A stretch of 62,345 bases of DNA, counting the filler, from an uncultured Thermoplasmatales archaeon (GTDB taxonomy: Archaea > Thermoplasmatota > E2 > DHVEG-1): assembly GCA_964517155.1 (NCBI GenBank). It is 4 parts of 4 records of this genome, joined end to end, with 100 filler letters (N's around TTAATTAATTAA, not from the genome) between each part and the next. Parts side by side here need not be neighbours in the genome. Positions count along the whole stretch, not along the records: positions 43,701 to 57,570 come from CAZFAZ010000074.1; 3 more parts are not named here. The stretch is one strand, 5' to 3'. Numbering within the stretch: the first letter of the stretch is position 1; every line of letters starts with the position of its first letter. Below are positions 20,146 through 59,305 of the stretch, in pieces. Both the position numbers and the translations under genes were made by a program. The notes under the pieces were generated by a model, which ran no database searches, was not told the DNA's origin, and was given only the letters and a program-made list of their open reading frames with translations.

Positions 20146-20245
20146 NNNNNNNNNNNNNNNNNNNNNNNNNNNNNNNNNNNNNNNNNNNNTTAATTAATTA
20201 ANNNNNNNNNNNNNNNNNNNNNNNNNNNNNNNNNNNNNNNNNNNN
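20146..20245. other. Artificial contig linker
   Basis: N44-TTAATTAATTAA-N44; stop codons in all six frames. Confidence 0.97.
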
Positions 20246-43600: not shown

Positions 43601-43700
43601 NNNNNNNNNNNNNNNNNNNNNNNNNNNNNNNNNNNNNNNNNNNNTTAATTAATTAANNNNNNNNNNNNNNNNNNNNNNNNNNNNNNNNNNNNNNNNNNNN
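43601..43700. other. Artificial contig linker
   Basis: N44-TTAATTAATTAA-N44. Confidence 0.97.
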
Positions 43701-43742
43701 AGGCTAATAAATGATAATATATATAAGCGTAACGGAAACGTT

Positions 43743-44066
43743 TTATTTTTTGGGTTTATAAGGAATTCTTGTATATTTTTGACAGTTTTTACAAAAAATA
43801 ATAATTTTTCCTTTGTTTATTCTAGTTCTTGAGTTTATATTTGGTAATAGATAGCTGTAGCAGTGTTTGCAAAAAGATCTTTTAAATTCTAGGGGTATTG
43901 GAGTTAAGTATTTCATTGATATTTTACGAGCAATATTTACGTATCTATTTGCTAGTTCAAAGTTTTTCTCTTTTGCTTTGTTATAGGCTAGTTTAAATAA
44001 TCTATGAATTCTTTTTATTGCTATTTGCTTCTGGTTTTTTTTTTTAAATGTTTTTTTGTATGTCAC
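43743..44066 (-). CDS. rnp4: RNase P protein component 4 (Rpp21)
   Basis: IA..RI..LF, A.RYV.IARKI, FCKHC...CKNC...RIP. Confidence 0.92.
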   Translation of the reverse strand: MTYKKTFKKKNQKQIAIKRIHRLFKLAYNKAKEKNFELANRYVNIARKISMKYLTPIPLEFKRSFCKHCYSYLLPNINSRTRINKGKIIIFCKNCQKYTRIPYKPKK

Positions 44067-44114
44067 GTAGTACTTGTATATCTTATTTATTAGATAAAAG
44101 CTGTGTTTTTCCTC

Positions 44115-46454
44115 TTAAACAAAAATTTTGTATTCATATGCTTTTATAAGTGCAGATACAGAATGTTGCGTAAAGTCATTTCGAATTTTGTTGTCTATTA
44201 AAGAGTATCTAAAACCACCGATTACTCTTGACTTATTTTTAAGATAAAAAGAATTATTTTCTGTAAACTGTAATTGCATTATAAATCTTGAACCCTTTTT
44301 TATTGTATCATAATATTTTTGCATATGTTCTGTGTCATTTATCATTTTTGCAACAGCATATGCATCATTTATTCCCTCCAGATAAGTTGATGTTGAAATA
44401 GCGGGATTTGTTTTTGGGAAACCACCACGCTCATCAGGATATGTACTATTTGTTATTTGATATTGGACAATCCAATCGTTCATTTCAAAAATAAAAATTG
44501 GTATATCTGAATCTTGTGTTTCTTCATATAAAATTTTATATGCTTGTGTATGCCAAGGTATAAAAGCAGTATTTTTATTCTCAATCCAATATTTAGTATA
44601 ATACCCATATGCTTTTTGGACGGAATCCAAGTAACTTGTATTTTTTGTTTCCTGATAAAGTCTCATTAGTGAAAGCATTGCCTCACCTGGGTAAAAGTTA
44701 ATGCCAGATGTACTATTATACAAGAAATTCGTGTTATATGAACCATCTTCCTGTTGAAGTGAAATTATTCCTTTTGCAAATTTTTTAAGTAATTCCATTC
44801 TATTACTGTAATCTCGTGTTTCTACAAGCCCAAGGATCATAAAAGCATTGTATGCAAGTGGTGCATTATTGCTTATGTTTAAATAAGCATAATTGTTTTT
44901 TTCTTCTATAAAAGTCAAATAATAATCAAATGTGTTTTTAATCAAATCTTGGGTTTTGTTATTTGTTAAAAAGTTTTGTAGCGTTGATGCTGCCCAGGTT
45001 GAAGCTATTTGTCGTACATGATTATTATCATTTGAATAGTAGTCTAGGCTTGGATAATATTCATATTCAAGTAAACTAGATTCTTCGTTCGTATTGTTGA
45101 TAAACCAATTCTGAGCAAGAGACAGTCTACTCAGAAGCATTTTTGTATCAATTTCAGCTTCGTCTAGTAAAATATTATAGCGGTATAAATCAATTATTTC
45201 ACCTGTTCTATAGCCTAAAAATGTAGTAGTATCATATGTATAGATATCAACTAGTTGATTAGTATAACATTCAACTGGCAAACCTGCTTTTAAGCATAGG
45301 TTTTTAAGGGTATTAATAAGATCATAACCACTTGTTATAGGAACCGATTCTTTATAGTAAGCATAGTTGTTACCACTTTTAATTTCTATTGCATTAATTC
45401 CAAGTGCTATCTGTTGATTTAAAGATTCTAAAGGCTCAACATAAGTAGCATATTTTATTTCTTTTTTATTATACATAAAAGTAAATACCAAGGAAACAAA
45501 TTGCGTTTCATTTTGTTCAAGGGTGTTTCCAAACCTGTCATCTTCAATGGATTCAACAACTGCTTCAGATATATCTAGATAAACTCTGTTTTTTGTTGTT
45601 TTGTTGTTGCTTCCACTTTGACACCCATGGATAGAAGAATTTTTCAAAATTGTTATATATAATCTTTCATAGTCTTGTTCAAAAGATATTTTTGGGAGTT
45701 CCGTGGCCTGTTGTAAATCATTTTTAAAATATGCGTCAATTATGTCGTAGGCATAGTTCAATAAAACAGTTTTTTGATTTTTAGAAATTTCAAAAAAATT
45801 TGTTTCAGAAGAATCAACTGGTTGTTCTTCATATGGACAATATAAGCATGTTATAGATAAAATAATTAATATTAGTGATACTAATATGCAAAATATCTTT
45901 TTGTTTTTTATTTTTTTAAAGAAAAATAAAAAAAACAAAATAAAGATAGATATGCCTGCTAGAAAAATCAATACAAAAAAAGTATTTGAAAATAATTTGT
46001 TTTCTCTGTAGTTTGAAGAATCATTTTTATCTGAGAGTTCTATATACTCTCCAGATACATGAAAATCAATTGATTCTTTTATATTTTCTTTAGTAATTCT
46101 TTCAAAAGTAAAAAGAGTATAATATCCACTAGATGTATTTTTTACTACTGCAGCAGGTAAATATTTAAAACCATAATCATCAAATTTTTCTTTATTTTCG
46201 GTATATCTTAAACGCGATATTGTTATTTTGTCACCATAATATTGTTCTATCTCATCTATTATTGGTTCTTTTTGTATACAGCTTGGGCAACTATCGGAAT
46301 AAAAAAACTCCAATACAACATTGTCCGTTGTAGTAATCTGCGATTGTTCTGCTTGTACATCTTGATTAAAAAGAAAAGCTGTAGTAAGTTGTAAAGATAA
46401 AAATATTAGGATGATAGTAAAAAAGATATATTTATTCATGAGTTTAATAGTCAT
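44115..46454 (-). CDS. Membrane/secreted fusion: thioredoxin-like, TMs, AMMECR1-like, (alpha/alpha) toroid domain
   Basis: FFYSDSCPSC; LYITI...IHGC and LCLKAGL match the AMMECR1 at 24680; NHVRQ, FYPGEAML, GGF...RNDFTQH. Confidence 0.65.
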   Translation of the reverse strand: MTIKLMNKYIFFTIILIFLSLQLTTAFLFNQDVQAEQSQITTTDNVVLEFFYSDSCPSCIQKEPIIDEIEQYYGDKITISRLRYTENKEKFDDYGFKYLPAAVVKNTSSGYYTLFTFERITKENIKESIDFHVSGEYIELSDKNDSSNYRENKLFSNTFFVLIFLAGISIFILFFLFFFKKIKNKKIFCILVSLILIILSITCLYCPYEEQPVDSSETNFFEISKNQKTVLLNYAYDIIDAYFKNDLQQATELPKISFEQDYERLYITILKNSSIHGCQSGSNNKTTKNRVYLDISEAVVESIEDDRFGNTLEQNETQFVSLVFTFMYNKKEIKYATYVEPLESLNQQIALGINAIEIKSGNNYAYYKESVPITSGYDLINTLKNLCLKAGLPVECYTNQLVDIYTYDTTTFLGYRTGEIIDLYRYNILLDEAEIDTKMLLSRLSLAQNWFINNTNEESSLLEYEYYPSLDYYSNDNNHVRQIASTWAASTLQNFLTNNKTQDLIKNTFDYYLTFIEEKNNYAYLNISNNAPLAYNAFMILGLVETRDYSNRMELLKKFAKGIISLQQEDGSYNTNFLYNSTSGINFYPGEAMLSLMRLYQETKNTSYLDSVQKAYGYYTKYWIENKNTAFIPWHTQAYKILYEETQDSDIPIFIFEMNDWIVQYQITNSTYPDERGGFPKTNPAISTSTYLEGINDAYAVAKMINDTEHMQKYYDTIKKGSRFIMQLQFTENNSFYLKNKSRVIGGFRYSLIDNKIRNDFTQHSVSALIKAYEYKIFV

Positions 46455-46560
46455 ATACTTTAGATATAGAAAGGTTTACTTTTAATGGTTTTTATTTTTG
46501 TTTTTTTAAAAAAAGATAATAAAAAATAAAGAGAGCTGATTATGTGTAAATATCTCTTTT

Positions 46561-48267
46561 TTATACACCAGATACAACTACCGTAAATATCGCAGGTACG
46601 CCAGATTGGTATTGAGCATCCCAAACAATAACAGTTTCTTCATACGATGCTACATATTTAGCATCATATGGTGAAATGCCAGCATTATAATTTAACAAAG
46701 TTTCTGCGCCATCTAGTGATTTTATTATAATAGTAATACCTACGGTATCTGGTAGATTAAATGTCTGTTTCATTGTTTCATGAGTTATTGTTTTCATTGC
46801 ATTTATTTTATATATGCTAAGCATAGGTAAGGGATCGCTTTCTGTTGCTTTCCTTGCTTTGGATGAATCTTGTACTGATTCATCGTATCCTCCAACTACG
46901 TAATTATTTTGGTTATGGGCAATAACATAATCATCATTGAGTTTGACAAGATATGTATGATATACCTTTGTCTCCATGTTATATGTTGGTACTCTTTCAA
47001 ATATTTTTTCTATGGATGTAACATAAGCTTTATCAGCAAATAAATCACCTGTGTTTAGATCACCTGCTGGTATCCATTGTCCATTTACATATAATAGATG
47101 ATCTGGCGTTACTTTTAGTTCATTGTTAAGAACTAAATAGTGATCTGTTATCATTTGATCGGGTGAATCGTGGAAGACTTCTTCGACTTCATCGACTGTA
47201 ATAATCTGGTTTTTTTCGTCAAATGATTTAATTAAGTCTCCAATTTGTAGGTCTTCTATGTTTTTTGTTGTTCCGTCGGCCATTAGTATTTGGCTACCGG
47301 AAAGGAAACAGGTACTAGCTTGTTGTGAACCTCCTGGCAACATATCATCAATTGTTCCTCCTGCTGCAGGATTAGTTGTTTGTGTTGTTTGTGATGTTTG
47401 TGTTAGCCCAGTTGCTTGTTGTTGACCCGTGGCACCAGAATCCGTTGGACAGCTACAAGCAAAATGCCCGGAAGTTCCGACCAGACTATTCGGCGGACAC
47501 CACACCATAGGTGCTCCTCCAGCGCAAGGACCTTCCGCCTCTTGTCCACCTAAATACTCAGGGCCATTAGGGTCATCATCATCTGGATACCATGGATTAT
47601 ATGGGCCTGAGCCATCATCTGAAGAGTTCACGATAACAATAAGAGGTGCAGACCAATCACTAACATTACCACAAGGATCCTTGGCTCTTACAGTAACACC
47701 ATAGCTCCCTATACTATTCCAAGTATGTGATCTACTACTAAGCCCCCATCCACTAAATCCTGTTCCATCATTCCAATTAAATTGATATACTAATTTGTCA
47801 CCATCAGGATCAGTTGTTGATGCAGTGTAAATATAAGAAAAACCTTTTACTGCATTAGTTTCACCCTGAGGCACCCCTGGAATATTTGGAGGATTATTTA
47901 TATCGCATTCACCCGCAGGAATACTATCCTCTTCATATTCATCAGGAGAAATAGATACCAAAGACGTATCTACAGGTGTTTCATCTGGATCTAATCCAAG
48001 ACCTATATCTTTTACAAAAGCTACCTCAACCTGCCATTTTGGAGAGCCTGTTTGAGTTTCACCCGAGAGCTTTAATAGGCTTGAAATTTCAAGAGCCTGA
48101 GCTTTAAGCTCAATTGTTTTTTGTACTGAAGACTGCTCTAAAGACGGAGATATCGAAGCCACAATAATACCTACTGTAAATATAATTACTGTAAGAGATA
48201 TAGCTGCCTCCATAGGATAAGATAACGCGCTTTTATTATTACATATTTTTTTAATTTTTCTCATCAT
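46561..48267 (-). CDS. Pilin-like protein (class III signal) with PKD domain, Cys-rich mini-domain and Hint domain
   Basis: KKICNNKSA|LSYPME then hydrophobic helix; NNPP...DPDGD...FNWNDG PKD; CFLSG...TPDH...IAHN. Confidence 0.8.
   Translation of the reverse strand: MMRKIKKICNNKSALSYPMEAAISLTVIIFTVGIIVASISPSLEQSSVQKTIELKAQALEISSLLKLSGETQTGSPKWQVEVAFVKDIGLGLDPDETPVDTSLVSISPDEYEEDSIPAGECDINNPPNIPGVPQGETNAVKGFSYIYTASTTDPDGDKLVYQFNWNDGTGFSGWGLSSRSHTWNSIGSYGVTVRAKDPCGNVSDWSAPLIVIVNSSDDGSGPYNPWYPDDDDPNGPEYLGGQEAEGPCAGGAPMVWCPPNSLVGTSGHFACSCPTDSGATGQQQATGLTQTSQTTQTTNPAAGGTIDDMLPGGSQQASTCFLSGSQILMADGTTKNIEDLQIGDLIKSFDEKNQIITVDEVEEVFHDSPDQMITDHYLVLNNELKVTPDHLLYVNGQWIPAGDLNTGDLFADKAYVTSIEKIFERVPTYNMETKVYHTYLVKLNDDYVIAHNQNNYVVGGYDESVQDSSKARKATESDPLPMLSIYKINAMKTITHETMKQTFNLPDTVGITIIIKSLDGAETLLNYNAGISPYDAKYVASYEETVIVWDAQYQSGVPAIFTVVVSGV
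46912..47310 (-). other. Hint domain 3 (aa C320-N452), junction HN|Q
   Basis: Block A CFLSGSQILMADG, block B VTPDH, block F TYNME, block G IAHN. Confidence 0.9.
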
Positions 48268-48407
48268 GTTTTATCACCTTAAGTTATTATTTTATTATTA
48301 TACTCCTATTCATCACAACGTGACATGTAATATTTTACTAATCATGATATTTAAAGTTATTGTGCAAAAAAGTCAAAATGCAAAAATGATAAATAAAAAA
48401 AAAATCA

Positions 48408-48908
48408 CTATATACCATATTTAACCTCTTCATAAATATAATCATTTTTATTGCTTAAACTTAAACCAACAAGTATAGTATCTGGTGAATTATCAAACTT
48501 ATAAGAAATTCCTAAATATACTGCATCAAAACAATTTCCACGTAAACCTTCAGCAAAAATAAATATGTCTCTTGTATCATTAAAATAGATACTTACGACA
48601 TCCTCATAATTAATGTAATTAGATTTATCTTCTAATCTATCCTGTAATGCTACACCAAATTCTCTACGTGCATTATCAAAATCAAGTTTTATAAAAGATT
48701 TTTTATCTATAGGTATGTTAATATCAGATAAACTAATAGAAATCACAGCCAATGCAACAATAAATACTGTTATCATCACTCCACCCAACAACAGCAACTG
48801 ACCATCATTTCTCTGACAAAAACTATTTTTAGAATTTCTTTTTATATTAAAATCTAAAAGAAACTTTGCATGTCTTTTAAAAAATCCACGCCACATAAAA
48901 GCATTCAC
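48408..48908 (-). CDS. Pilin-like protein (class III signal peptide)
   Basis: RNDG|QLLLLGGVMITVFIVALAVI; operonic overlap with the upstream gene. Confidence 0.7.
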   Translation of the reverse strand: MNAFMWRGFFKRHAKFLLDFNIKRNSKNSFCQRNDGQLLLLGGVMITVFIVALAVISISLSDINIPIDKKSFIKLDFDNARREFGVALQDRLEDKSNYINYEDVVSIYFNDTRDIFIFAEGLRGNCFDAVYLGISYKFDNSPDTILVGLSLSNKNDYIYEEVKYGI

Positions 48909-49378
48909 CTCTCCAAATTAAACCACATATAAATTATCAATTCATAAATAAAACCATTCGCAACAACAATTCTGGAAACACGAGCTTCATTGTTAATCCA
49001 GATTCCAGGATCATACAGAACCTCGGTACAATTGTTTAGTGTAGCAGTTGAATTATACATTAACATTGAAACATTTACTCTTGAAATCTTAAATAAAGTA
49101 CCTGAAGGTAAAACCTCATAAACATAATTAACCAACTTAGAATTATGCGAGCTGTCATCAGCAATATATGAGGCCAATAAACTTGAATATTCTCCCGAAG
49201 GATCCTTTTGGCCACCCAAACTTGTAAAAATGCTGTTGCCATATGATTCAAACCTGTTGTCACGCCCCATAGGTAAATGAATTGAAACATCTATACTTCT
49301 CACGAAAAATATTGCTAAAAGCAACATTCCTGCAACAATAACTGCCTCAAGTACTTGTAATTGAGCAGAATCATTCAT
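48905..49378 (-). CDS. Pilin-like protein (class III signal peptide)
   Basis: NDSA|QLQVLEAVIVAGMLLLAIFFV. Confidence 0.75.
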   Translation of the reverse strand: MNDSAQLQVLEAVIVAGMLLLAIFFVRSIDVSIHLPMGRDNRFESYGNSIFTSLGGQKDPSGEYSSLLASYIADDSSHNSKLVNYVYEVLPSGTLFKISRVNVSMLMYNSTATLNNCTEVLYDPGIWINNEARVSRIVVANGFIYELIIYMWFNLER

Positions 49379-51327
49379 ATATATTCTCCCCTTACAACAA
49401 TACTTCTTTCACCTTTTTCAAGAGTTAAACCACCAATCGTCCAATAATAATCAGAAACACTATCAGAATCAAATTTAATTTCCAGCACACCTGCTGCAGT
49501 AACAGATACATTAGATTTTAAGATTTGTTTATACGGTTCATCCGAAGAGCAAGTTATACCTGAGAGTATTATGTTTCCATCACCTCCATTTAAAGTTATG
49601 TTCATATCATTTACAATTATATCTTCATCACCTACAGTAAAAACTATACTGTAAAAACCTTCTGTTAAATTCATGATTTTAAAAAAAGCAGGACCTGAAC
49701 CTGTAGCATTACAAACAAAAGTCCTGCCTAACCCCTCACCCAAATCTTTTGAATTTACTAAACCACTATCCCACGTATAATCCAGTGAATGAGTTCCATT
49801 TATATATGCAACTGGTTCAGCGTCAGCACGCCCACCACTACCGATGGATGTAACCATTGCAAACTTTCGAACAAATATCCAATCATAATATGCAATAGTA
49901 CCACTGTTAGTTGTGCAAAGCCCAAAATAGCCCTCATTAAGTAAATTATATATAGTTGCATTAGATCCATCTACAGAAAAGCTCTCATAAAAATATCTAC
50001 ATATTACATTATCTGTACCATTTAAGATATATTTCAACCGATTCCACTCAGTATTAACAGGGTTTTTGCCATAATTGGAAGATATGTTTTTCCATTCATT
50101 ATTTTGATATTTTATAATAGTCAAATAATTCTCTAAATTATCCCCCGGAGATCCTGTAGCTATAGAACTTGATGAAAAAACTAATCCTTCTTGATAAGGT
50201 AGTTTATTAATGCCTAAAATATTTTTACTTCTAACAAACATGCTAGCCTCCCTCTTATTTTCTGTAACTTCAACTGCTTTTGTTTTAACTTCAATTATGC
50301 AGGGCGATGACTCAGGATACAACATCAATTTAGATTTTAATGCAGATTTATTTGTTAAAACTAACATTTTGTCTTTAACATACAACTCACCACCCGAAGG
50401 AATATAAGTACTCCATCTACCCGAATCAGGAGCAGACCCCTGAGAAAAATCATCAAAGAAAATAAATGTATCAAAACCATTGCTATAAGGAAGAGCTAAG
50501 GGATTGCTATAATACATATAAATTGTACATCCTGTTGCAGGTATATCTGTTACATTTACCCATATCCTTGAAACATGTGTTTCACTTGGATACCACCGCT
50601 CTATCCAATACGGCAATAATTGTCCTCCAGCATTATCAGAAACAAATCTCAAATCAGAGGCGTTATTATTAACTAGTGAATAATCAAAATTTTTGTCAGT
50701 TAATTGAATTAGAATTTGATAACCATCATCTATATCACTTCCAGTTGGATTGCTTATGTATATAGGGGTTCTATATCGATATTGTAAAAGTTGCGGATGC
50801 CAATTATTAGGCTCACAATTATCTGATATTCTTGTGTATCCTAAAGTTCCAAGTGAATTTTCTCCACCAAAATCAAACTTATATACATAATCAGTTTTTT
50901 TACAAAAAACAACCAATTTTCCCTCCGAACTATATACCCTACCATATACATCCATAATCAACCTTTGAGGAACATTATAATTTGTACTGCTTACTTTAAT
51001 CACTCCATCTGTAGAATTAACATATACTGCTTGGTTACTAATTTCTACATAATAAGAGTACTTATCAATTAATTTTAAAGGAATCTCAAATGTTGTTGAA
51101 TAATTTGCATTAGGATATTGTTCTTTTATTAAACAAATATTAGTTATAAGGCTTGCTACACGATTTGCAAGATCTTGAGCATATAACTCTGCAGCAGATA
51201 CTGTCTTTTCATCAATAACTGTAACAACTGCAAGTGTAGAAGCAGCAACTACAAATCCTGTTAAAGAAAGTGTTAAGACGTATCCAACTAAATTAGATAC
51301 TGCATCATTTCTTTCTAAAAAATTCAT
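49375..51327 (-). CDS. Pilin-like protein with an inserted DUF2341 domain
   Basis: RNDA|VSNLVGYVLTLSL; YRTPIYI, DLRF, PYWIERW, IWVNV, YMYYSNP, FFDDF. Confidence 0.8.
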   Translation of the reverse strand: MNFLERNDAVSNLVGYVLTLSLTGFVVAASTLAVVTVIDEKTVSAAELYAQDLANRVASLITNICLIKEQYPNANYSTTFEIPLKLIDKYSYYVEISNQAVYVNSTDGVIKVSSTNYNVPQRLIMDVYGRVYSSEGKLVVFCKKTDYVYKFDFGGENSLGTLGYTRISDNCEPNNWHPQLLQYRYRTPIYISNPTGSDIDDGYQILIQLTDKNFDYSLVNNNASDLRFVSDNAGGQLLPYWIERWYPSETHVSRIWVNVTDIPATGCTIYMYYSNPLALPYSNGFDTFIFFDDFSQGSAPDSGRWSTYIPSGGELYVKDKMLVLTNKSALKSKLMLYPESSPCIIEVKTKAVEVTENKREASMFVRSKNILGINKLPYQEGLVFSSSSIATGSPGDNLENYLTIIKYQNNEWKNISSNYGKNPVNTEWNRLKYILNGTDNVICRYFYESFSVDGSNATIYNLLNEGYFGLCTTNSGTIAYYDWIFVRKFAMVTSIGSGGRADAEPVAYINGTHSLDYTWDSGLVNSKDLGEGLGRTFVCNATGSGPAFFKIMNLTEGFYSIVFTVGDEDIIVNDMNITLNGGDGNIILSGITCSSDEPYKQILKSNVSVTAAGVLEIKFDSDSVSDYYWTIGGLTLEKGERSIVVRGEYI

Positions 51328-53156
51328 TTGATCGCCTCCAAGTTTAATTCGATAAGAGAGTTATCAAAAATAAGTTTTTTCCCATTGTGAGTATATACTA
51401 GTGTATCTTCATCCAAGGGTTCAAAGTCATAGTTATTTCTGAAATATTCAAGCCAAATATCCTTATTATCCCCATAAATCTGTATTTTTAGATTGTATAC
51501 GCTAGGAAACCGTGGCTCTCTGCTTAAACTATTTTTCATATTAATTCCAAGTTGATATGCTCCAGCACCACCACCTCCTGTCGACCCAGTTCCTCTCACT
51601 TGGATTATCCTTAATGCAAGAGCGTTTTCTCCTTCAAAAAAAGATGGTTTTTTCACAAAGTTATTCTCAGATGATTCGATAGATATTACTGCCCCATTTT
51701 CAAATATAGTTTCCAGAATTCCAACATTATACGGCGCAGTATATGTGACTGATCCTAAATCAAAAACCCAGATTCTACCAAAAGGAGTACCATATGTATT
51801 AGGAAAACGATTTGACTGATTAAAATAAACATCACATGTAGAATTAATAATATCCATACGTAATGTTCCAGACAATTCCTTTACAGCATCAAAAGTACCC
51901 TCCTGATTAATTCCAACATTAAGAAACTGATAACTTGCATCTTCTGGAAAATACTCCCAAGGACGAACACGAATACCGGGACTAACATAATCTATTTCAT
52001 TTATCGCACCATCTTCATTCTTTGCTTGTACGGTCACAGTATAAGTACCAGGTTTTTTAAAAATATGCCAAAAATAGACCGACTCTCCTGAAGTAAATAA
52101 TCCTTCCGTCCAATCATCAACAGTTCCATCGCCCCACATTATTCTATATCTTAAATCCTTATTATCAGGATCTTCTCCAGTTATATTAAACAAACATTTC
52201 AAACCTGAATATCTAAAAACAGGCAGTATCACGCTTGGCGTAAATGGAGGTGGACACTCTACATAAAATGTGCTATAAGGAAAATCGTACAGAGGCATTG
52301 AAACTAAGCCTGTACTTTCATTTATATATGCCATGCCATTTGTATAAATATTTCCTCCAAAATACCACATATAATAGTTCGAATTTCCATCACCACCTAA
52401 AGTACTTAATACAATATAATACTCCTCATCCTGAATTAATGTTATATTTTCAAAATCACAGTTTATCCAACCCCAAGAATTTAAAATACTGCTGGAAGGT
52501 AAAGATACAGATGTAAAAGGTTCATTATTTAAACCCGGAAAATCACTAGCATTATAAATAGAAACAACAAGATCACCAGTAACTATACCATATGATTTTA
52601 CATAAACCTGGATTTTATCTAAAGTCCATCCATATGAATTGTTAAAAGATTGTGCACACCAATGATTGTTATATATCTTTTTATAAGGTGTTGTTTGCGG
52701 AGAAAAATACCATGTTGGCATTCCCGGGTCAAGCCAATATATATTAGCTGAATCAACAGTAGGTGAACTGCCATCCATATTTACTGTAAAATATTGATCT
52801 TTATCATCTAAACCGGATACAGTAAAATTGTAACTTTCATTAAAAGAATACATTATTATCATTTTAGTCGAATTTGAATCTATAGATAGTGAACCTTTAT
52901 CATTCATACTTACTATCTCGCCACCTGCTCTTGTGTCTGGGCCATCTATTATCAAGTTACGTATAGTGTCATCCATAACATCAAAGTTACCCAAGGCAGT
53001 CTGCAATTGACTGCTCATTTTTTTTTCTTCTATATACGGCAAACCCCATGCAAGAACTACAGTTATAGTACCAAAAACAATCATAATTACAAGAAGCGCT
53101 GAAACAACCTCTGAAACACCCTGATTATCCATCTTTATTTTTTTCATCATCCTCAC
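51324..53156 (-). CDS. Pilin-like protein with beta-sandwich and PKD inserts; Hint-less paralog of the next gene
   Basis: DNQG|VSEVVSALLVIMI; WGLPYIE; AQSF domain; DPDN...WGDG PKD; PFGRIWVFDLG. Confidence 0.8.
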   Translation of the reverse strand: MRMMKKIKMDNQGVSEVVSALLVIMIVFGTITVVLAWGLPYIEEKKMSSQLQTALGNFDVMDDTIRNLIIDGPDTRAGGEIVSMNDKGSLSIDSNSTKMIIMYSFNESYNFTVSGLDDKDQYFTVNMDGSSPTVDSANIYWLDPGMPTWYFSPQTTPYKKIYNNHWCAQSFNNSYGWTLDKIQVYVKSYGIVTGDLVVSIYNASDFPGLNNEPFTSVSLPSSSILNSWGWINCDFENITLIQDEEYYIVLSTLGGDGNSNYYMWYFGGNIYTNGMAYINESTGLVSMPLYDFPYSTFYVECPPPFTPSVILPVFRYSGLKCLFNITGEDPDNKDLRYRIMWGDGTVDDWTEGLFTSGESVYFWHIFKKPGTYTVTVQAKNEDGAINEIDYVSPGIRVRPWEYFPEDASYQFLNVGINQEGTFDAVKELSGTLRMDIINSTCDVYFNQSNRFPNTYGTPFGRIWVFDLGSVTYTAPYNVGILETIFENGAVISIESSENNFVKKPSFFEGENALALRIIQVRGTGSTGGGGAGAYQLGINMKNSLSREPRFPSVYNLKIQIYGDNKDIWLEYFRNNYDFEPLDEDTLVYTHNGKKLIFDNSLIELNLEAIK

Positions 53157-53306
53157 CTAATAAATAGGTATACATTTTATTCTCATTTATCATAACAACC
53201 ACTGTTTCTCTCATTTTTACAGTCGTTGTTAAGAGCATTTATGCTCTCACCAAGGATAATTAATTTTTATATCCAACTATGAGTAAATCTACATATTATC
53301 TTTATT

Positions 53307-56303
53307 TTATCTTATATCTAATATATTGACTCTAATAATTGAACTATAGCAAGCCAACTTTGTTGAAGCCCCATTTTTGTATAACAGCGTATCAGAATAG
53401 CTACCAGACTGCTCAGTGAAATCAGGAGTCCATGCAAACGTAAGATATGTATACCAAAGGTCTTGGTTTGAACCAATTATTTTAAGTTTTAAATTGCATA
53501 CCTGAGAAGTTTGCGATTCAGCTACAAAAGAATTTAAAAGATGAAGTTGAAACTTGTAATTACCAGTGCCGCTACCACTAGTTGCTCCATCCCCTCTAAT
53601 CTGAGTAACTTTGCATACAAGAGTACTACTGCCACTTTCATAAATATTTGAAGATTCTTGTAGATATCTGCTAGAAGGAGTTATCTTTACAACTCCACCA
53701 TTTTGAAACATTGTTTTGTAAAAACCATTATTGGACTGATAAGTATGGCAGATATGACCAAGATCAAAGATCCATATCCTACCAAATGGAATACGACCCC
53801 TGAGACCAATGGGCGTAGAAGGGTAATTATTATTATAAAGGTCTATACGAACTGTCCCTTTTAAAGCATGTATGCCTTGTGTAGAAATAGGATATACTCC
53901 AGTTATACCGCTCAGGTCCTCAAAAAAAGAAGAAGCAAACATCTCCTCATCAAGAGGCGCTCTAACTGTATATTTAACTTGTATGACCAATGGTTCAGAC
54001 CAATCGCTTTGCAGACCCTCACCATCTATTGCTTTTGCTCTAATCTCATAGATGCCTGCTTGAGACCAACTATGCTCTTGAACACTTCCTCCTTCAATAT
54101 ACGTTCCATCACCCCATGAAAAATTATAAGAAGAGATTCCACCACCGCCCGAAGGAGCTGCAATAAAACTATAGAGGGTGTCATTATAATAAACATTATA
54201 AGAACCAGTAAGCGACGGCGGATTTGGAGGATTATTTGAAGAGTCCAATATCGCTGAAGCAGTAGATGCTGCACCATATGGTTTTGCATTACTACCATCT
54301 GACTCTTGCCCTCTATCATTTGCGATTGACCATGCTTTGTAATAATATACGCTATTCGATGATAGTCCTGTATGAATAGTACTTGTTCCACTAAATATAC
54401 CAAGGTCTCCACCCGGCACTATAGTTCCAGATCCTTTGTTCCATGGAATGGGCTCAGAATCTTGAGAATATTCTATATATACTTTGTCTCCCCCTGTTCC
54501 ATGTGTCCATGAAAGCATTACCTGATCTGTATCAGCAGTTGCACTAAAACTTAACAAGGCAGCAGGTTTAGTAAGAAAATATTGTTCAAGACCAAAACTA
54601 CATCCAATACGATTACAAGCCACTGCATAATAACGATAATATGTTCCTTCCGATAATGAAGAAATTGATGTAGAATAAGCACCTGTATCAAAGTAACCAG
54701 TTTCAGATTCACACTCTTCTTCTATCAAACCACCAGTATAACATATTCCCCTAGAAAATCTTTCCTCTGAACCAATAAAAAGAATATTGCCTCTACCAAT
54801 GAATGTAGTTTCACCAACATCACCAGATTGAATTACTTCTGTAGTAACTAGTGGATATTTCGGTTTTTCTGGCGCTGAGTTATGAGTAATAATATCATCT
54901 GCAATAAAAGTGCCATATTTCATATCTACAAAATTATAAGTAAGATAATTGCCCTCAAATGATACAATGTCCAGCACTTCAACCACATCTAGTTCATCCT
55001 TAGAATTTAAACAAAAAAGAAAATCACCAATCTCAATTATACCTGCACCCATCTCCAACTCATCCAAACCACTAATAGTACACCACCCCTTACCACTCAC
55101 AAGAAAAGGATGATTAGCTGTAGGTTTCAAAACCTTACCATCGCTAAGTAAAATCTCATGAACATTATCATGCCAAATTGTTTGCAAACGCACCACAGGA
55201 GCAATCTCAACAATACTAGTCTCTTCATTAAAAACCTTAACCAGATCACCAATAACAATATCTTCAATATTTTTATAAGATCCATCCGCCATATTAACAG
55301 GAGTACCTGGCATAAAACATATTATCACTTCTTGACCTATAGCCGTAAGTTGATATTTTTCATTTTCAACATAATCTATTTCAATTCCATACTCCATATC
55401 ATTATGACCAAAAGCATCTTTTGCATTCGGATTAAAAGTAAATAAGTTATGAAAGTTATAAAAAATATCAAAAAGTGCGTTTTCTAAATAACCTAAATCT
55501 GATTTAACTAAGAAGCCATCAGCAAAATATACATTACAAGAAGAAAGTTTTAGATCATAGGTAATCTTTCTTTCGTATTCTTTTTCAACTGAAAAGATAT
55601 TAACCTCGTTTAAATTCTCATTAGTTAAATAATCACCAATTCTAATTTGTTCAGCTGAAACCCATTCATTATTAACATAGAATAAATGATTAGGAGTAAC
55701 ACAAACGTTTCCATTTAAAACGAGGTAATAATCATACATAAGGCTTTCATTATAAATCAATAGCTCTTCAACCTTATCTTCAACAAAAATATCCTTATTA
55801 AAATCATAAGATAAAACTACATCTCCGCTTTTAATAAACTCAATATTTTTATAACTACCATCAGCCATTAAAACCTGAGTACCTGAAAGAAAACATGTTG
55901 TTTCTTCAAACCAATAAACTTTTGCATCATTTAGTTGACCTTTTGACATATGTATATCAATTTGATTTTCAGCAAGATCTGATACATTGAATTCATAACC
56001 CTCATCAAATGAATACATGAGTAATAGCTTGTCCCCACTTGACTCTATATCAATGGAGCCATCTTCATTAAAAATATCTTCAATTCTAATTGAATCAGCT
56101 CCATCTGTAGCCAACTTTTGCAAGATTTCATCTAAAGAAGAAAACTCACCGGCTATTGCCTCACTTCTATTTTTTGCTTTTTCACTTTCAATATAAGGCA
56201 ATCCCCATAAAAGAATAGAGGTAATACTAGAAAAAAAAATAATAAGAACCAAAATAAGCGAAAAAACAGAGCTAACTGCATCTTTTCTTTTCTTCAGATT
56301 CAT
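53307..56303 (-). CDS. Pilin-like protein with two tandem Hint domains, two FN3-like domains and a PKD domain
   Basis: Likely start MNLKKRKDA|VSSVFSLILVLII; WGLPYIE; two CF..G..V.MADGSYKNIE Hints; PFGRIWIFDLG. Confidence 0.85.
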   Translation of the reverse strand: MNLKKRKDAVSSVFSLILVLIIFFSSITSILLWGLPYIESEKAKNRSEAIAGEFSSLDEILQKLATDGADSIRIEDIFNEDGSIDIESSGDKLLLMYSFDEGYEFNVSDLAENQIDIHMSKGQLNDAKVYWFEETTCFLSGTQVLMADGSYKNIEFIKSGDVVLSYDFNKDIFVEDKVEELLIYNESLMYDYYLVLNGNVCVTPNHLFYVNNEWVSAEQIRIGDYLTNENLNEVNIFSVEKEYERKITYDLKLSSCNVYFADGFLVKSDLGYLENALFDIFYNFHNLFTFNPNAKDAFGHNDMEYGIEIDYVENEKYQLTAIGQEVIICFMPGTPVNMADGSYKNIEDIVIGDLVKVFNEETSIVEIAPVVRLQTIWHDNVHEILLSDGKVLKPTANHPFLVSGKGWCTISGLDELEMGAGIIEIGDFLFCLNSKDELDVVEVLDIVSFEGNYLTYNFVDMKYGTFIADDIITHNSAPEKPKYPLVTTEVIQSGDVGETTFIGRGNILFIGSEERFSRGICYTGGLIEEECESETGYFDTGAYSTSISSLSEGTYYRYYAVACNRIGCSFGLEQYFLTKPAALLSFSATADTDQVMLSWTHGTGGDKVYIEYSQDSEPIPWNKGSGTIVPGGDLGIFSGTSTIHTGLSSNSVYYYKAWSIANDRGQESDGSNAKPYGAASTASAILDSSNNPPNPPSLTGSYNVYYNDTLYSFIAAPSGGGGISSYNFSWGDGTYIEGGSVQEHSWSQAGIYEIRAKAIDGEGLQSDWSEPLVIQVKYTVRAPLDEEMFASSFFEDLSGITGVYPISTQGIHALKGTVRIDLYNNNYPSTPIGLRGRIPFGRIWIFDLGHICHTYQSNNGFYKTMFQNGGVVKITPSSRYLQESSNIYESGSSTLVCKVTQIRGDGATSGSGTGNYKFQLHLLNSFVAESQTSQVCNLKLKIIGSNQDLWYTYLTFAWTPDFTEQSGSYSDTLLYKNGASTKLACYSSIIRVNILDIR
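54879..55319 (-). other. Hint domain 2 (aa C344-N490 of the 1013-aa ORF), canonical splicing junction HN|S
   Basis: CFMPGTPVNMADG, PTANHPF, TYNF, ITHN|S. Confidence 0.9.
55500..55895 (-). other. Hint domain 1 (aa C152-S283 of the 1013-aa ORF), lacks terminal His-Asn (LVKS|D)
   Basis: CFLSGTQVLMADG, VTPNHLF, TYDL, YFADGFLVKS. Confidence 0.88.
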
Positions 56304-56358
56304 TAATACATCCCCATCCATTAACATCTCTAATTTTAATTTAAACAATACCTCATTT

Positions 56359-57291
56359 TTATACTCCTGTAACCAGAAATTTGAAGATAAACCATGTAAT
56401 TAAAACCATGATAAACATATGTTTAACACCAGCAACAATTTTGCCATCTTCAAATACACCTGTTACAACACCCATACCTGCGCTTTGAAATATAGCTGCA
56501 ACAAAAAATGCAAAAGTAATATCATACTGAGTTATAGTTGAAGATCCACCCATTGCACCTGAAAGACCACCTGAACCAGGACCAAGCATAGCAGGAACCA
56601 AACTTTTACATAAAATAACTATAATTAAAAGAAAAACAAACATACCAACATAAACAACTGCAACATAAGAAAGCATACCTGCACGACGTTCAGATTCAAT
56701 AAGTTTAAGCTCTCTTGCATCCCTTGATGCTGCATCAAGAACATCTGCAACATTTCCACCACTGCGGCTTGCTTCAATAATCAGAGAAACAGTTCGACGG
56801 ATAAGCTTAGTATTAACACGTTTTGCAAAAGATTCAAGTGCTTTTTCAACACTATTACCCCAAGAAATCTGACGAGCAATATTTTGAATTTCAGGCGTAA
56901 GAAGACCATAATTGCCTTTTGAAGCAGCCATAATAGTCTTTGTAAAAGTCATACCCGCACGACGAGACTCAGCAAGATCACGTACAAAATCTGGAAATCT
57001 ATGATCAATTTTACGTACCTTTCGCTCACGCAAGAAACTATAAATACCAAAAATACCAGTTGAAACAATAAATGCTAAAACTAGATAATCAACATTAGTA
57101 CCAAGAATTACACCACCAATTTCAAAAGGTTTTATAATATCTATTGGGGGCGTAGATAAAATTGATAAAAAAATAAATAAAACTGCAGAAAAAGCAATAA
57201 CCATATAAATAACAAAACGAGAAAATTCACCTGTTACAATCATACGTTTTATAAAACCGGGTTTTGAGATCTTATCTATATTCTCATCCAT
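56359..57291 (-). CDS. Type IV pilus / T2SS-F membrane platform protein (TadC/FlaJ-like)
   Basis: FPDFVRDLAESRRAGMT, YGLLTPEI, ISWG, EASRSGGNVADVL. Confidence 0.92.
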   Translation of the reverse strand: MDENIDKISKPGFIKRMIVTGEFSRFVIYMVIAFSAVLFIFLSILSTPPIDIIKPFEIGGVILGTNVDYLVLAFIVSTGIFGIYSFLRERKVRKIDHRFPDFVRDLAESRRAGMTFTKTIMAASKGNYGLLTPEIQNIARQISWGNSVEKALESFAKRVNTKLIRRTVSLIIEASRSGGNVADVLDAASRDARELKLIESERRAGMLSYVAVVYVGMFVFLLIIVILCKSLVPAMLGPGSGGLSGAMGGSSTITQYDITFAFFVAAIFQSAGMGVVTGVFEDGKIVAGVKHMFIMVLITWFIFKFLVTGV

Positions 57292-57297
57292 TTTTTA

Positions 57298-57570
57298 TCA
57301 CACCCTCTGAGACATAGAAGCCAAAACAACAGCAAAACCAGTATGAATTAAAGGAATAACAACAAATGCAAAAACATAAATAATCAAAAGCTGACCTTTA
57401 TCAGCATTTGAAATAATCATAAGAAGAGGAATTATAATAATAATTAACAAAACACCTGCGACCGCCGCTGTAACATATGCCTCAGCCATTATTCCAAGGC
57501 TTTCAATAAGTTGTCTTTGAGCAACACGATTCTCACGTGTATATTGATCTGCTTTACTCATAAAATATGG
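57298..57570 (-). CDS. C-terminal fragment of a second TadB/TadC-like platform protein, truncated by the gap
   Basis: IESLGIMAEAYVTAAVAG followed by TM helices. Confidence 0.8.
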   Translation of the reverse strand, partial: PYFMSKADQYTRENRVAQRQLIESLGIMAEAYVTAAVAGVLLIIIIIPLLMIISNADKGQLLIIYVFAFVVIPLIHTGFAVVLASMSQRV

Positions 57571-57670
57571 NNNNNNNNNNNNNNNNNNNNNNNNNNNNNN
57601 NNNNNNNNNNNNNNTTAATTAATTAANNNNNNNNNNNNNNNNNNNNNNNNNNNNNNNNNNNNNNNNNNNN
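57571..57670. other. Artificial contig linker
   Basis: N44-TTAATTAATTAA-N44. Confidence 0.97.
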
Positions 57671-57760: not shown

Positions 57761-59305
57761 ATTAAACAACTGTTAAGGAGAAGTTTATAAAAGACAGGGA
57801 CATATTTAAAAATAGATATGACAAAATGGACAAAGGAAGATATAAATAATCTTAAAACTAAATATCCTAAGAATGGAACTAAGATTCCTGAGTTAACAGA
57901 TAAGTTCTCAGTTTCAGCTATTAAAACTAAAGCAAGAATATTAAATATTAAAAAACAAACTTGGACAGAAGAAGAAATAAAGATTTTAAAAGAAAAATAT
58001 CAAAAAAATGGTTGTAAGATTCCTGAATTGCTAAATAATAAAACTCAAAGTTCAATTGTCTGCAAAGCACATAAACTAGGAATAAAATCTAATGTTCGTT
58101 CAATTCCAAGAAAATGGACCGATGAAAGGATTCACAAATTAAAACAGGATTATAAACAAAAAGGTACAGATATACCTGAACTCCTTGAAATTTTTTCTAG
58201 AAACGCAATAATGATAGCAGCAAGAAATCTAAATCTAAAATGCCATAAAAAAATAAACAAGAAATTTGATATTTCTAAGGATGAATTAGTTGAGTTGTAT
58301 ACTAATCAGAAAAAATCTACAACACAAATCGCAAAGATTTATAACTGCTCTTTTAACACAATCGTATCAAGACTTGAGGGATATAATATTCAAATAAGAA
58401 AACGCAAAGACAGTATTTGCATAGTTCGTGGTTATCATAAAAATATAAAATTAAATGATTACATTTTACAGATTATGGATGGTATTTTATTAAGTGATGG
58501 TGGTTATGATTTTGGTGGAAAAGATAAAAAAACTGCTTCATTAAAAATCACACAAATGGAAAGTCATAGAGAATGGTTAGATGAATTAAAATCTATTTTT
58601 GAAAATAACAATATTGAGTGTTCGATGGTTCATAGATTTTCAAGGCCAATTGATAAAAGTTTTCCTCAATGGGTTTTGAAAACAAGGTATTATTTGGAAT
58701 TAGGTGATGAACGGAAAAGATGGTATCCAAAAGGTAAAAAAATAGTTCCAAAAGACGTTAGAATAACTCCTTTGGTTCTTGCTCAGTGGTATATGGGTGA
58801 TGGAAATTTAAGTGCTACAGGTGGGACTAAAAGTGGAAAAAAATTCTATAGACTAAGTCTCTGTACAGATAGTTTTACTAAAGAAGAAAATGAGTTTTTA
58901 AGAGATAAACTCAAAAAACTTTATGGTTGGAATTTTAGAGTTTTTAAATATCGTAATAGTTCGTATAGACTAGTAATTAATCTGCCTAAAGAGATTAAAG
59001 ATTTTTTATTTAAAACAGCGCCTTACAAAGTGGAATGTTTTAACTATAAATGGGAAGCATTGTATGATATTAATTATGCTCCTATCAGAACTGAATGGAC
59101 TAAAAGAAAAGATATGATTATAATAAAGAAATTCCCTGAAAATGGTACTAATATTCGTGAATTATTAGATGATGGTATATCAGAATATGCTATTCAGCAC
59201 AGGGCAATAAAACTTGGTGTAAAATGTAATTATATATTCAATCAATCTGGAAAAACTAAAAGAAAAAATTCATGATTAAAAAACTGCTAATGAGAAATCT
59301 ATAAA
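57761..59305 (+). repeat. Imperfect 31-bp direct repeats flanking the LAGLIDADG gene (57761-57791 and 59275-59305)
   Basis: ATTAAACAACTGTTAAGGAGAAGTTTATAAA vs ATTAAAAAACTGCTAATGAGAAATCTATAAA; 26/31 identical by hand alignment. Confidence 0.5.
57818..59275 (+). CDS. Free-standing two-motif LAGLIDADG endonuclease with Myb/SANT-like repeats and an HTH
   Basis: IMDGILLSDG and LAQWYMGDG motifs; WT.E....LK..Y...G..IPEL three times N-terminally and once C-terminally; ELVELY...STTQIAKIYNCS HTH. Confidence 0.8.
   Translation: MTKWTKEDINNLKTKYPKNGTKIPELTDKFSVSAIKTKARILNIKKQTWTEEEIKILKEKYQKNGCKIPELLNNKTQSSIVCKAHKLGIKSNVRSIPRKWTDERIHKLKQDYKQKGTDIPELLEIFSRNAIMIAARNLNLKCHKKINKKFDISKDELVELYTNQKKSTTQIAKIYNCSFNTIVSRLEGYNIQIRKRKDSICIVRGYHKNIKLNDYILQIMDGILLSDGGYDFGGKDKKTASLKITQMESHREWLDELKSIFENNNIECSMVHRFSRPIDKSFPQWVLKTRYYLELGDERKRWYPKGKKIVPKDVRITPLVLAQWYMGDGNLSATGGTKSGKKFYRLSLCTDSFTKEENEFLRDKLKKLYGWNFRVFKYRNSSYRLVINLPKEIKDFLFKTAPYKVECFNYKWEALYDINYAPIRTEWTKRKDMIIIKKFPENGTNIRELLDDGISEYAIQHRAIKLGVKCNYIFNQSGKTKRKNS

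Follow-up and report, generated by a model that had tools for sequence, protein, structure and literature searches.

Autoprocessing by domains of the Hint and bacterial intein-like (BIL) type is known mainly from inteins, Hedgehog, bacterial surface and toxin proteins and a ubiquitin-like locus of ciliates. We here describe three such domains in subunits of an archaeal type IV pilus-like system. They are encoded by an uncultured Thermoplasmatales archaeon (GenBank assembly GCA_964517155.1), in a minus-strand operon at positions 46561-57570 of a window of 62,345 nucleotides; by window we mean the whole stretch of DNA that was analysed. The parts are known, i.e., the HINT/BIL chemistry on the one hand and archaeal type IV pilus loci on the other. 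New is a BIL-type Hint at a conserved, specific site of archaeal minor-pilin-like subunits, together with a sub-lineage that lacks the terminal Asn and an added, intein-like type within the same protein.

The closest described relatives treat their flanks in different ways. A-type BILs, according to the review PMC7765530, occupy hypervariable regions of secreted proteins and combine an Asn-dependent cleavage of the C-terminal junction with N-terminal cleavage. The Hog/Hint domain of Hedgehog (1at0) belongs to an exported protein, has no terminal Asn and reacts only at its N-terminal junction; the same review assigns to Hedgehog a sterol-recognition region and the transfer of cholesterol. BIL2 of Tetrahymena (6tmm/6y75) is a non-selfish Hint that processes its flanks. 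It is cytoplasmic, lies between ubiquitin-like domains and is reported (PMC8616854) to form isopeptide bonds. Mini-inteins such as that of NpuDnaB (4o1r) share the fold, and inteins sit at conserved sites of mostly cytoplasmic enzymes. As to the pili, the survey by Makarova et al. (2016; PMC4858521) lists for clade 1 loci an ATPase, two TadC, large DUF2341 proteins as candidates for tip proteins, which these authors compared with PilY, and at least five class III minor pilins. The words “Hint” and “intein” occur nowhere in the main text of this survey.

The finding is located on a single contig of a metagenome-assembled genome (MAG), C74, which corresponds to positions 43701-57570 of the window and ends at 57570, the right edge of the operon segment. 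The genome assembly amounts to 1.59 Mb (91 contigs, 90.8% complete), and the named homologues that come closest carry annotations as Thermoplasmatales or Thermoplasmata archaea. The Hints are carried by two pilin-like proteins, pilin A and the product of the last pilin-like gene, which are built up as follows:

53307-56303, minus strand: pilin A, a large minor-pilin-like subunit of 998 residues if read from the ATG at 56303; the reading frame is open from a TTG at 56348 (1013 residues)
55896-56303, minus strand: N-piece of pilin A, with the class-III-like signal KDA|VSSVF (here and below, the bar marks a junction), a long N-terminal helix and beta strands
55500-55895, minus strand: Hint 1, 132 residues, with Cys1, TPNH and the end VKS|D, without terminal His-Asn
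55320-55499, minus strand: linker between Hint 1 and Hint 2, 60 residues, rich in Phe and Tyr, predicted to be disordered
54879-55319, minus strand: Hint 2, 147 residues, with Cys1, TANH and the end THN|S
53994-54173, minus strand: PKD domain of pilin A (PKD_4, 24.9 bits, under the cut-off of 27)
53310-53951, minus strand: C-piece of pilin A, about 214 residues, conserved across the family (GRIWxFDLG region), predicted to pack on the N-piece
46561-48267, minus strand: last pilin-like gene, 568 residues, whose orthologue in another genome (G014, see below) keeps its Hint
46912-47310, minus strand: Hint 3, 133 residues, with Cys1, TPDH and the end AHN|Q
47653-47859, minus strand: PKD domain of the 568-residue protein (29.7 bits, cut-off 23.5)

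The true start of the pilin A gene is likely the ATG at 56303 (MNLKKRKDAVSS), as in the homologues; the residue numbers given below for its Hints count from the TTG at 56348. The order of parts in pilin A is N-piece, Hint 1, linker, Hint 2, adhesin-like modules including PKD, and C-piece. The 568-residue protein consists of an N-piece, PKD, a low-complexity linker, Hint 3 and a C-piece of 116 residues. The linker between Hints 1 and 2 shows no conservation in other homologues of the KS|D type. A preliminary description of this DNA had spoken of PKD/FN3 modules. PKD was indeed found in three proteins, whereas no FN3 was detected in the window proteins by Pfam at E ≤ 0.01; residues 690-780 of the pilin A model match PKD/FN3-like domain structures with Z scores of 10-12.

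The three Hints themselves are genuine. Hint 1 (residues 152-283, ETT|CFLSGTQV..TPNH..GFLVKS|DLGY) scores 36.2 bits with PT-HINT, the cut-off being 27.7. Hint 3 (residues 320-452 of the 568-residue protein, AST|CFLSGSQI..TPDH..YVIAHN|QNNY) reaches 41.5 bits with Hint (cut-off 29.7) and 38.1 bits with PT-HINT. Hint 2 (residues 344-490, VII|CFMPGTPV..TANH..DIITHN|SAPE), taken alone, exceeds the cut-off of no Pfam family; it does so for intein_Nterm of NCBIfam (36.1 versus 24.5 bits) and matches the sequence of the BIL structure 2lwy at E 1.5e-4. None of the three matches an endonuclease family, and with 132-147 residues they are too short to harbour one. The best structural match of the Hint 1 model is the BIL of C. 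thermocellum, 2lwy (Z 16.3, rmsd 2.5, 127 of 138 residues aligned, 24% identity), followed by the NpuDnaB intein 4o1r (Z 15.5), Tetrahymena BIL2, 6tmm (Z 15.4, rmsd 2.9, 134 residues aligned), and Hedgehog, 1at0 (Z 14.1, rmsd 2.9, 123 residues aligned). The scores for BIL, intein and Hedgehog thus differ by only about 2 units. Cys1, TxxH and the fold of the HINT superfamily are seen in Hints 1 and 3; Hint 2 is assigned by sequence only, its model having a low predicted local distance difference test score (pLDDT). The C-terminal His-Asn is present in Hint 3 (AHN) and Hint 2 (THN) and absent from Hint 1 (VKS); the +1 residues are Gln, Ser and Asp, respectively. The complete set of a canonical intein (Cys1, TxxH, HN and a +1 Cys, Ser or Thr) is therefore found in Hint 2 only. 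The preliminary description had read these junctions, and the lack of an endonuclease, exactly as they are.

This architecture is not a peculiarity of one genome. With residues 1-520 of the large pilin as query, a word-based search yielded 83 proteins, several of which combine DUF7289 with Hint families. A profile made from the three window Hints recognised 159 Hint domains in these 83 homologues plus six window proteins, four of them in the window proteins. When the N-piece together with Hint 1 (268 residues) was run by phmmer against 1.84 billion representatives of clusters at 50% identity, 5471 hits were obtained at E ≤ 1e-3 and 124 at E ≤ 1e-30. Architecture was counted in the best 150 of the 5471. 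A pilin-like N-terminus is present in 79 of these 150, and in 71 of the 79 the Hint starts at residue 113-175; in the other eight, the first complete Hint begins at residue 537-1412. Many homologues thus have their Hint at a conserved site, and in no fewer than 71 clusters at 50% identity it forms a conserved and site-specific component of archaeal pilus subunits. The residue in front of the Hint is Thr in 55 of the 71; Cys1, as read from the individual sequences, is present in 70. A search for related loci with a single protein returned only one unrelated bacterial Hint locus.

The C-terminal ends tell more about the chemistry. Among 62 complete Hints of this set, 52 end in HN, 6 in KS and 4 in RS, and Asp follows in all ten cases of KS or RS. 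Position +1 is taken by D in 19 cases, by A in 10, P in 8, S in 5, T in 4, Q in 3 and G in 3; the other 10 have different residues, and Cys never occurs there. With Ser or Thr in only 9 of 62 and never a Cys, the family Hints resemble A-type BILs and not splicing inteins, as far as chemistry can be judged from sequence. Hint 1 belongs to the KS/RS|D sub-lineage, in which the terminal Asn is missing and Asn cyclisation is therefore impossible. The KS|D ending is probably an old, conserved variant that has lost His-Asn. In several proteins (P0088-P0094, P0101, P0105, P0119) the Asn-less Hints are followed by a motif of the kind ~VVVSD..ISKMS.A..KL.PLG; in the window protein and in P0007 this motif is missing and extra Hints take its place.

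Hint 2 is of a separate type, characterised by a TANH-like block B and a length of about 147 residues. All 19 complete domains of this type among the 83 homologues end in HN, and 14 of the 19 have Ser, Thr or Cys at +1. In Thermoplasmatales MAG proteins this type forms tandem arrays of up to 9 copies. The arrays are head-to-tail, with 0-4 residues between the copies and mostly T, S or C at +1 (P0002-P0006; G030:C62, a frame of 2927 residues; G143:C1, a frame of 3405 residues); some come after a subtilisin-like domain.

Are the three Hints then true inteins that excise themselves precisely, the mature pilins being seamless single chains? Hint 2 with its Cys1, TANH, HN and +1 Ser, and the +1 nucleophile in most of its type, would suit this idea, and Dassa et al. 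(2004) already announced in their title that BILs without a C'-flanking nucleophile are able to splice. Yet Hint 1 has no terminal Asn, Hint 3 is followed by Gln, a +1 Ser or Thr is rare in the family, and A-type BILs, according to the review PMC7765530, cleave but cannot ligate their flanks. Even Hint 2 does not sit in a conserved site of its host, as canonical inteins do, but in the unconserved linker, and it is missing from the G014 orthologue. We consider full splicing very improbable.

The comparison with the known relatives can now be made. With A-type BILs (2lwy), the pilin Hints share the HINT fold, Cys1, TxxH, the lack of an endonuclease, His-Asn in Hint 3 and most of the 62 members, the common absence of a +1 nucleophile and, in line with PMC7765530, the residence in a variable region of an exported protein. 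They differ by the archaeal host, by their fixed place at one edge of a loop insertion, within a pilin-like subunit that a pilus operon encodes, by the exchange of His-Asn for Lys/Arg-Ser in the sub-lineage of Hint 1, and by the +1 Ser of Hint 2. Mini-inteins have the same fold and are approached by Hint 2 in their catalytic residues; here, however, the domains reside in exported, variable hosts, and elements needed for splicing are missing from Hints 1 and 3. Hint 1 is like Hedgehog in that an exported protein carries a Hint devoid of a terminal Asn. An adduct-recognition region of the Hedgehog kind behind Hint 1 was considered and found unsupported: the 60 residues that follow this Hint are unconserved and of low pLDDT.

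The structure of the carrier subunits provides the next piece of the argument. The AlphaFold 2 (AF2) model of the 998-residue pilin A has a mean pLDDT of 62.6. A helix (residues 7-67) and strands (72-132) are predicted with a pLDDT of about 80-92; Hint 1 (137-253), the linker (264-329, pLDDT below 50), a poorly modelled middle part, the PKD domain and a C-terminal domain (785-998, pLDDT 80-93) follow. Homologues without insert (332-337 residues) align to the N-piece and the C-piece only. The model of one of them (pLDDT 85.7, predicted template modelling score 0.82) shows one helix of 60 residues plus an all-beta part, and a rough alignment places the insertion site at about residues 133-150 of this form. 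Beyond the helix, no clear solved relative of the insert-free body was found (best VIA Z 5.0; no Foldseek hit at E ≤ 0.001), a weak match that does not make it a new fold.

In a complex prediction, which used our own alignment, the N-piece (33-136) and the C-piece (785-998) scored 0.89, the best of three controls 0.00. Of 157 solved complexes, 116 attained this level, as did 2 of 215 mismatched pairs. The runs share at least 87% of the contacts, of which there are more than 400, with a partner pLDDT of at least 84; strand 128-131 is paired with 818-821, and 92-97 with 842-846 and 938-943. Since both chains stem from one polypeptide, the score describes domain packing and not a tested interaction. 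The models indicate that the N- and C-pieces form one pilin-like body, with the Hints and adhesin modules as a giant loop insertion. A Hint is found at one boundary of the insertion, on the N-side in pilin A and on the C-side in the 568-residue protein.

The C-pieces also bear on the idea that these are proteins of the polymorphic toxin type, whose C-terminal effector is set free by a PT-HINT domain. Hint 1 has PT-HINT as its best Pfam family, Hint 3 is above the cut-off of this family, and elsewhere in the genome a large secreted protein of contig C63 has a Hint near the contig end. What follows the Hints here, however, are conserved C-pieces of the pilin family and not variable toxin tips. 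No toxin family was matched in the Pfam scans, no small gene resembling an immunity gene was recognised, and the next genes are conserved members of the operon. Toxin release is hardly to be expected.

What, then, do the Hints do? We give an even chance to the reading that autoprocessing outside the cell opens the loop and leaves a minor pilin or tip adhesin made of two chains. The subunit would be exported and anchored by its class III N-terminus. Each Hint would then perform the N-S acyl shift at Cys1, and hydrolysis of the resulting thioester would cut the N-terminal junction. Where His-Asn is kept, as in Hint 3 and most family members, cyclisation of the Asn would also cut the C-terminal side in the manner of A-type BILs. 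The opened loop would leave two chains joined by the large interface between N-piece and C-piece, and the string of adhesin modules, until then a loop anchored at both ends, would become a tether with a single anchor. Because its His-Asn is lost (KS|D), Hint 1 would cut only at ...ETT|C and stay on the product, while Hint 2 (THN|S), being of the variable type with +1 Ser or Thr, may splice out or cut within the tether. Loop opening would fit both Hint positions, N-side in pilin A and C-side in the 568-residue protein. Release of the adhesin is less likely than loop opening because the N- and C-pieces are predicted to be one body, and simple shedding fits less well because the PKD domain of the 568-residue protein would remain attached to the N-piece with its helix.

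The SEA and GAIN domains found in mucins and adhesion receptors also cleave themselves within a folded extracellular unit, and their two chains stay associated. Their fold and chemistry are unrelated, and they serve as a working analogy only.

How widespread are the Hint-bearing pilins, and does selection act on the Hints? A match at E ≤ 1e-3 was found in 21 of 41 relatives and, at E ≤ 1e-20, in 18 of 401 genomes sampled across the phylum. Of the 18, 15 belong to the same family (of 53 genomes sampled there), two come from two further families (1 of 4 and 1 of 12 genomes), and one is the window's own genome; the remaining families among the 401 had no match at E ≤ 1e-20. The N-piece and a Hint are matched contiguously in the genomes G128, G335, G292, G143, G192, G023 and G241, and partially in G407. 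In two genomes of the same genus (83% and 88% complete) the pilin cassette was not found. They keep orthologues of TadB and TadC (TadC being 76% and 74% identical); an orthologue of the DUF2341 protein was not found in them, and pilin B is matched at the level of PKD only. Their loci (L031 1-3951; L032 1-2773) have the ATPase, TadB and TadC followed by genes of the ribosomal-protein type and an Rpr2-like gene (read from sequence), without a 10-kb cassette; an Rpr2-like gene also flanks the window cassette (43743-44066). The pilin cassette appears to behave as a unit of insertion or deletion. In another genus (G014) the whole six-gene cassette exists in the same order, but not beside TadC; there Hint 1 (AKS|D) and Hint 3 (AHN|V) are kept, while Hint 2 is missing. 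By this comparison Hints 1 and 3 are the conserved ones and Hint 2 is the variable one.

Ten operon or cassette loci were compared, which had been picked by query match and hence are biased to carriers. In 8 of the 10, pilin A contains one or more Hints (none in G016 and G015); pilin B has one in 4 of the 10, and the last pilin in all 6 loci where the whole gene lies inside the fetched stretch. In the last pilin the Hint comes either right after the N-piece (G241, G021, G016) or right before a C-piece of about 110-120 residues (window, G014, G023); in G241 it is the sole insert. In pilin A orthologues the number of Hints is 1, 2 or 3 in G014, G000 and G128, respectively.

The congeneric genomes G143 and G292 allow a look at selection. 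In pilin B the Hint has an omega, i.e., dN/dS, of 0.087 (dN 0.006, dS 0.069), the N-piece having 0.066 and the remainder 0.139; for the Hint of pilin A the value is 0.237. The latter Hint (L038 3977-6985, minus strand, versus L039 4737-7730, minus strand) is only 69% identical with a dS of 0.71, whereas its flanks are 96% and 92% identical with a dS of 0.18 and 0.14. From this difference we conclude that Hints are exchanged as modules. Gene conversion from the neighbouring paralogue was rejected as the source of the swapped Hint, its identity to the paralogue being only 51-57%. The Hints thus appear to be constrained, yet replaceable as modules at one site. The preliminary description had named patchiness together with relaxed selection as the outcome that would speak against domesticated Hints. 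A patchy occurrence there is, of the whole pilin cassette and not of the Hints within it; relaxed selection there is not, the omega values of 0.09 and 0.24 indicating purifying selection.

Much of this may also be read in another way. The Hints could be tolerated modules, selfish or neutral and similar to mini-inteins, which persist and spread by recombination in a permissive loop of rapidly evolving surface proteins; by excising or cutting themselves they would only keep their host functional, and the pilus would gain nothing. We regard this as the foremost competitor of loop opening, although an unlikely one. The swap at a fixed site, the changing number of Hints, the Hint-less pilin A of two genomes, the tandem arrays in related MAG proteins and the patchy distribution are what one would expect of such modules, and a body made of two pieces would probably tolerate a break of the chain. 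On the other hand, a homing endonuclease is present in none of them. They occupy the same site with a conserved -1 Thr in 55 of 71 clusters. Excision is impossible for the KS/RS|D form, which is nevertheless retained, making up 10 of the 62 complete Hints, and has its own conserved downstream motif; and the +1 nucleophile, which a splicing parasite must have in order to be harmless, is missing from most Hints.

Several of these observations count against the opening of the loop as a useful process. Purifying selection is also expected for a selfish element whose failure cripples the host protein. The exchange of the pilin A Hint between G143 and G292 is of the kind typical of mobile elements. 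The cassette is patchy, was not found in the two same-genus genomes (83% and 88% complete), and is matched in few of the sampled genomes of the phylum, mostly of one family. Since pilin A of G016 and G015 has no Hint, the pilus needs none there. The body fold is without a clear solved relative, so that the term “pilin-like” is based on N-terminus, helix and operon context. Finally, the advantage of turning a loop into a tether is itself only our inference.

A further possibility is that the thioester is not hydrolysed but used. The Thr-Cys junction would then be a device at the pilus tip that couples the C-terminus of the pilin N-piece covalently to an amine of another subunit, of its own adhesin modules or of a surface, in the form of an isopeptide link or a surface “harpoon”; the Asn-less KS|D form of Hint 1 would be a specialised variant that holds the thioester. 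Among solved structures, BIL2 of T. thermophila BUBL1 (6y75/6tmm, E 5e-5) comes nearest to Hint 1 in sequence; PMC8616854 reports for it an isopeptide bond and the conjugation of ubl4 to substrates. By analogy with Hedgehog, a Hint with Cys1 and TxxH but without Asn might have its thioester resolved by an outside nucleophile, and the conserved -1 Thr would fit. However, neither an acceptor residue nor an adduct-recognition region nor a partner was identified, and the stretch behind Hint 1 is disordered in the model. The likeness to BIL2 is unspecific, given the small spread of the Z scores, and most family members keep His-Asn like the plainly self-cleaving A-type BILs. We deem such covalent chemistry improbable, less so than seamless splicing. 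If true, it would mean a covalent pilus and adhesin chemistry in archaea that is independent of both ATP and sortase.

The remaining members of the operon, and one gene downstream of it, are:

57298-57570, minus strand: 3' end of a TadB-like half-platform gene (T2SSF), cut by the contig end; a frame of “87 residues” at 57298-57561
56359-57291, minus strand: TadC-like second half-platform gene, 310 residues (T2SSF, 79.7 bits)
51324-53156, minus strand: pilin B, 610 residues, a Hint-less paralogue of pilin A (DUF7289 38.6 bits, PKD 36.4 bits)
49375-51327, minus strand: large protein with class III signal, 650 residues, DUF7266 and DUF2341 (74.1 bits), a candidate tip protein
48905-49378, minus strand: small pilin-like protein, 157 residues, with the N-terminus motif; orthologues at the same operon position
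48408-48908, minus strand: small pilin-like protein, 166 residues, N-terminus DG|QLLLL; orthologues in related operons
44115-46454, minus strand: downstream co-oriented gene, 779 residues, AMMECR1 and a thioredoxin-fold region; membership in the operon uncertain

An operon with overlapping start and stop codons and two TadC-like platform genes had been proposed before, and both features are there: eight co-oriented minus-strand genes lie in 46561-57570, with three overlaps of 4 nucleotides (51324-51327, 49375-49378, 48905-48908), and T2SSF is matched by the 310-residue protein as well as by the gene that is cut at 57570. The 310-residue protein aligns to the C-terminal half of the ArlJ/FlaJ and UpsF models, with scores under the cut-offs; the two platform genes correspond to the N- and C-terminal halves of models of the ArlJ/UpsF type. 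The PKD of pilin B occupies the same insertion region as the insert of pilin A. The two small pilin-like proteins match no family in the Pfam and NCBIfam scans. All six pilin-like proteins have a class-III-like N-terminus, i.e., a short charged or polar start, a [GA] site and then a hydrophobic stretch, as had also been claimed. The sites were searched with a FlaFind-like regular expression that we made ourselves; the strict FlaFind pattern is satisfied at the expected site in two of the six (DAVSSV, DGQLLL).

The missing upstream part of the operon, including the ATPase that the preliminary description had proposed to recover, was found on contig C52. Its last 99 nucleotides are identical to the reverse complement of the C74 end, in frame, and it contains the rest of the TadB-like gene (L011 17195-17884, the first 230 residues). 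The rebuilt protein has 230+90-33 = 287 residues, as have its orthologues. Upstream of TadB there are two T2SSE ATPases of 938 and 635 residues (121.5 and 120.6 bits). Their link to the operon relies on the 99-nucleotide contig overlap and on synteny; the same gene order in related genomes supports the join independently of the overlap. The full order, ATPase 1, ATPase 2, TadB, TadC, pilin A, pilin B, DUF2341 protein, two small pilins and last pilin, is realised in G128 and G023 and, in part and up to the ends of the fetched stretches, in G143, G292, G241 and G021. A Peptidase_A24 gene, i.e., one of the prepilin peptidase family, is found elsewhere in the genome (33.7 bits, cut-off 26.5). With T2SSE ATPases, T2SSF twice and this peptidase, the locus is, by its gene content, a complete archaeal type IV pilus-like operon comprising two secretion ATPases, two half-platform genes and six pilin-like genes.

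The content resembles that of the clade 1 (Epd-type) loci, a comparison that was made by locus content only and not by an ATPase tree; unlike those, the present operon has two ATPases. The Hint carriers, which had been called pilins in the preliminary description, are indeed pilin-like, but they do not look like major pilins; they look like minor-pilin or tip-adhesin subunits of a clade 1-like operon. No description of Hints in pilins was found in full-text searches of the literature, subscription journals being outside their coverage; the preliminary description, too, had known of no characterised archaeal pilus of such design.

If the Hints are active, nature provides here a compact genetic system for cleavage, and possibly ligation, of a filament subunit after its export. 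The three variants, HN with a non-nucleophile at +1, the Asn-less KS|D and HN|S, can be compared within one protein family, and such new extracellular Hints are candidate tools for protein engineering. The models further suggest that minor pilins can be built as split-body scaffolds with very large loop insertions.

Some minor observations may be added. The second ATPase (L011 15262-17169, plus strand, contig C52) has an N-terminal zinc-ribbon match and a C-terminal helix-hairpin-helix (HHH_5, 46.1 bits); its CPxC...CPxC start is also seen in the orthologues of G128, G023 and G143. Such a motif, of the DNA-binding kind and on a pilus ATPase, might be a sign that DNA is handled. The 779-residue protein downstream has a hydrophobic N-terminus, more hydrophobic segments (by eye) and a long C-terminal part without family match. 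That an exported thiol-redox protein is encoded beside Cys-dependent Hints may be a coincidence or more.

The window consists of separate MAG contigs chained by runs of N at 20146-20245, 43601-43700 and 57571-57670, which contain a short TTAATTAATTAA spacer; adjacency across these points is artificial. RadB and other genes to the right of 57570 are thus on another contig and are no neighbours. The same holds for a LAGLIDADG gene at 57818-59275, which was dismissed as a homing partner of the Hints. It encodes a free-standing LAGLIDADG_2 endonuclease (plus strand, 98.7 bits) with repeated Myb/HTH-like N-terminal modules.

A fourth Hint of the genome (CFLAGTQ...SLVHN) is located at the C-terminal end of a protein that looks secreted, has more than 1806 residues (L012 3-5420, minus strand, contig C63) and continues beyond the contig end. 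Exported scaffold proteins outside the archaeal pilin family carry Hints, too. In P0056, a prepilin of the bacterial type (N_methyl domain), a Hint lies 5 residues from the C-terminus, and alpha-2-macroglobulin-like proteins (P0050-P0052, P0057, P0059, P0063) have an internal Hint of the form GGG|CF...VHN|xKG.

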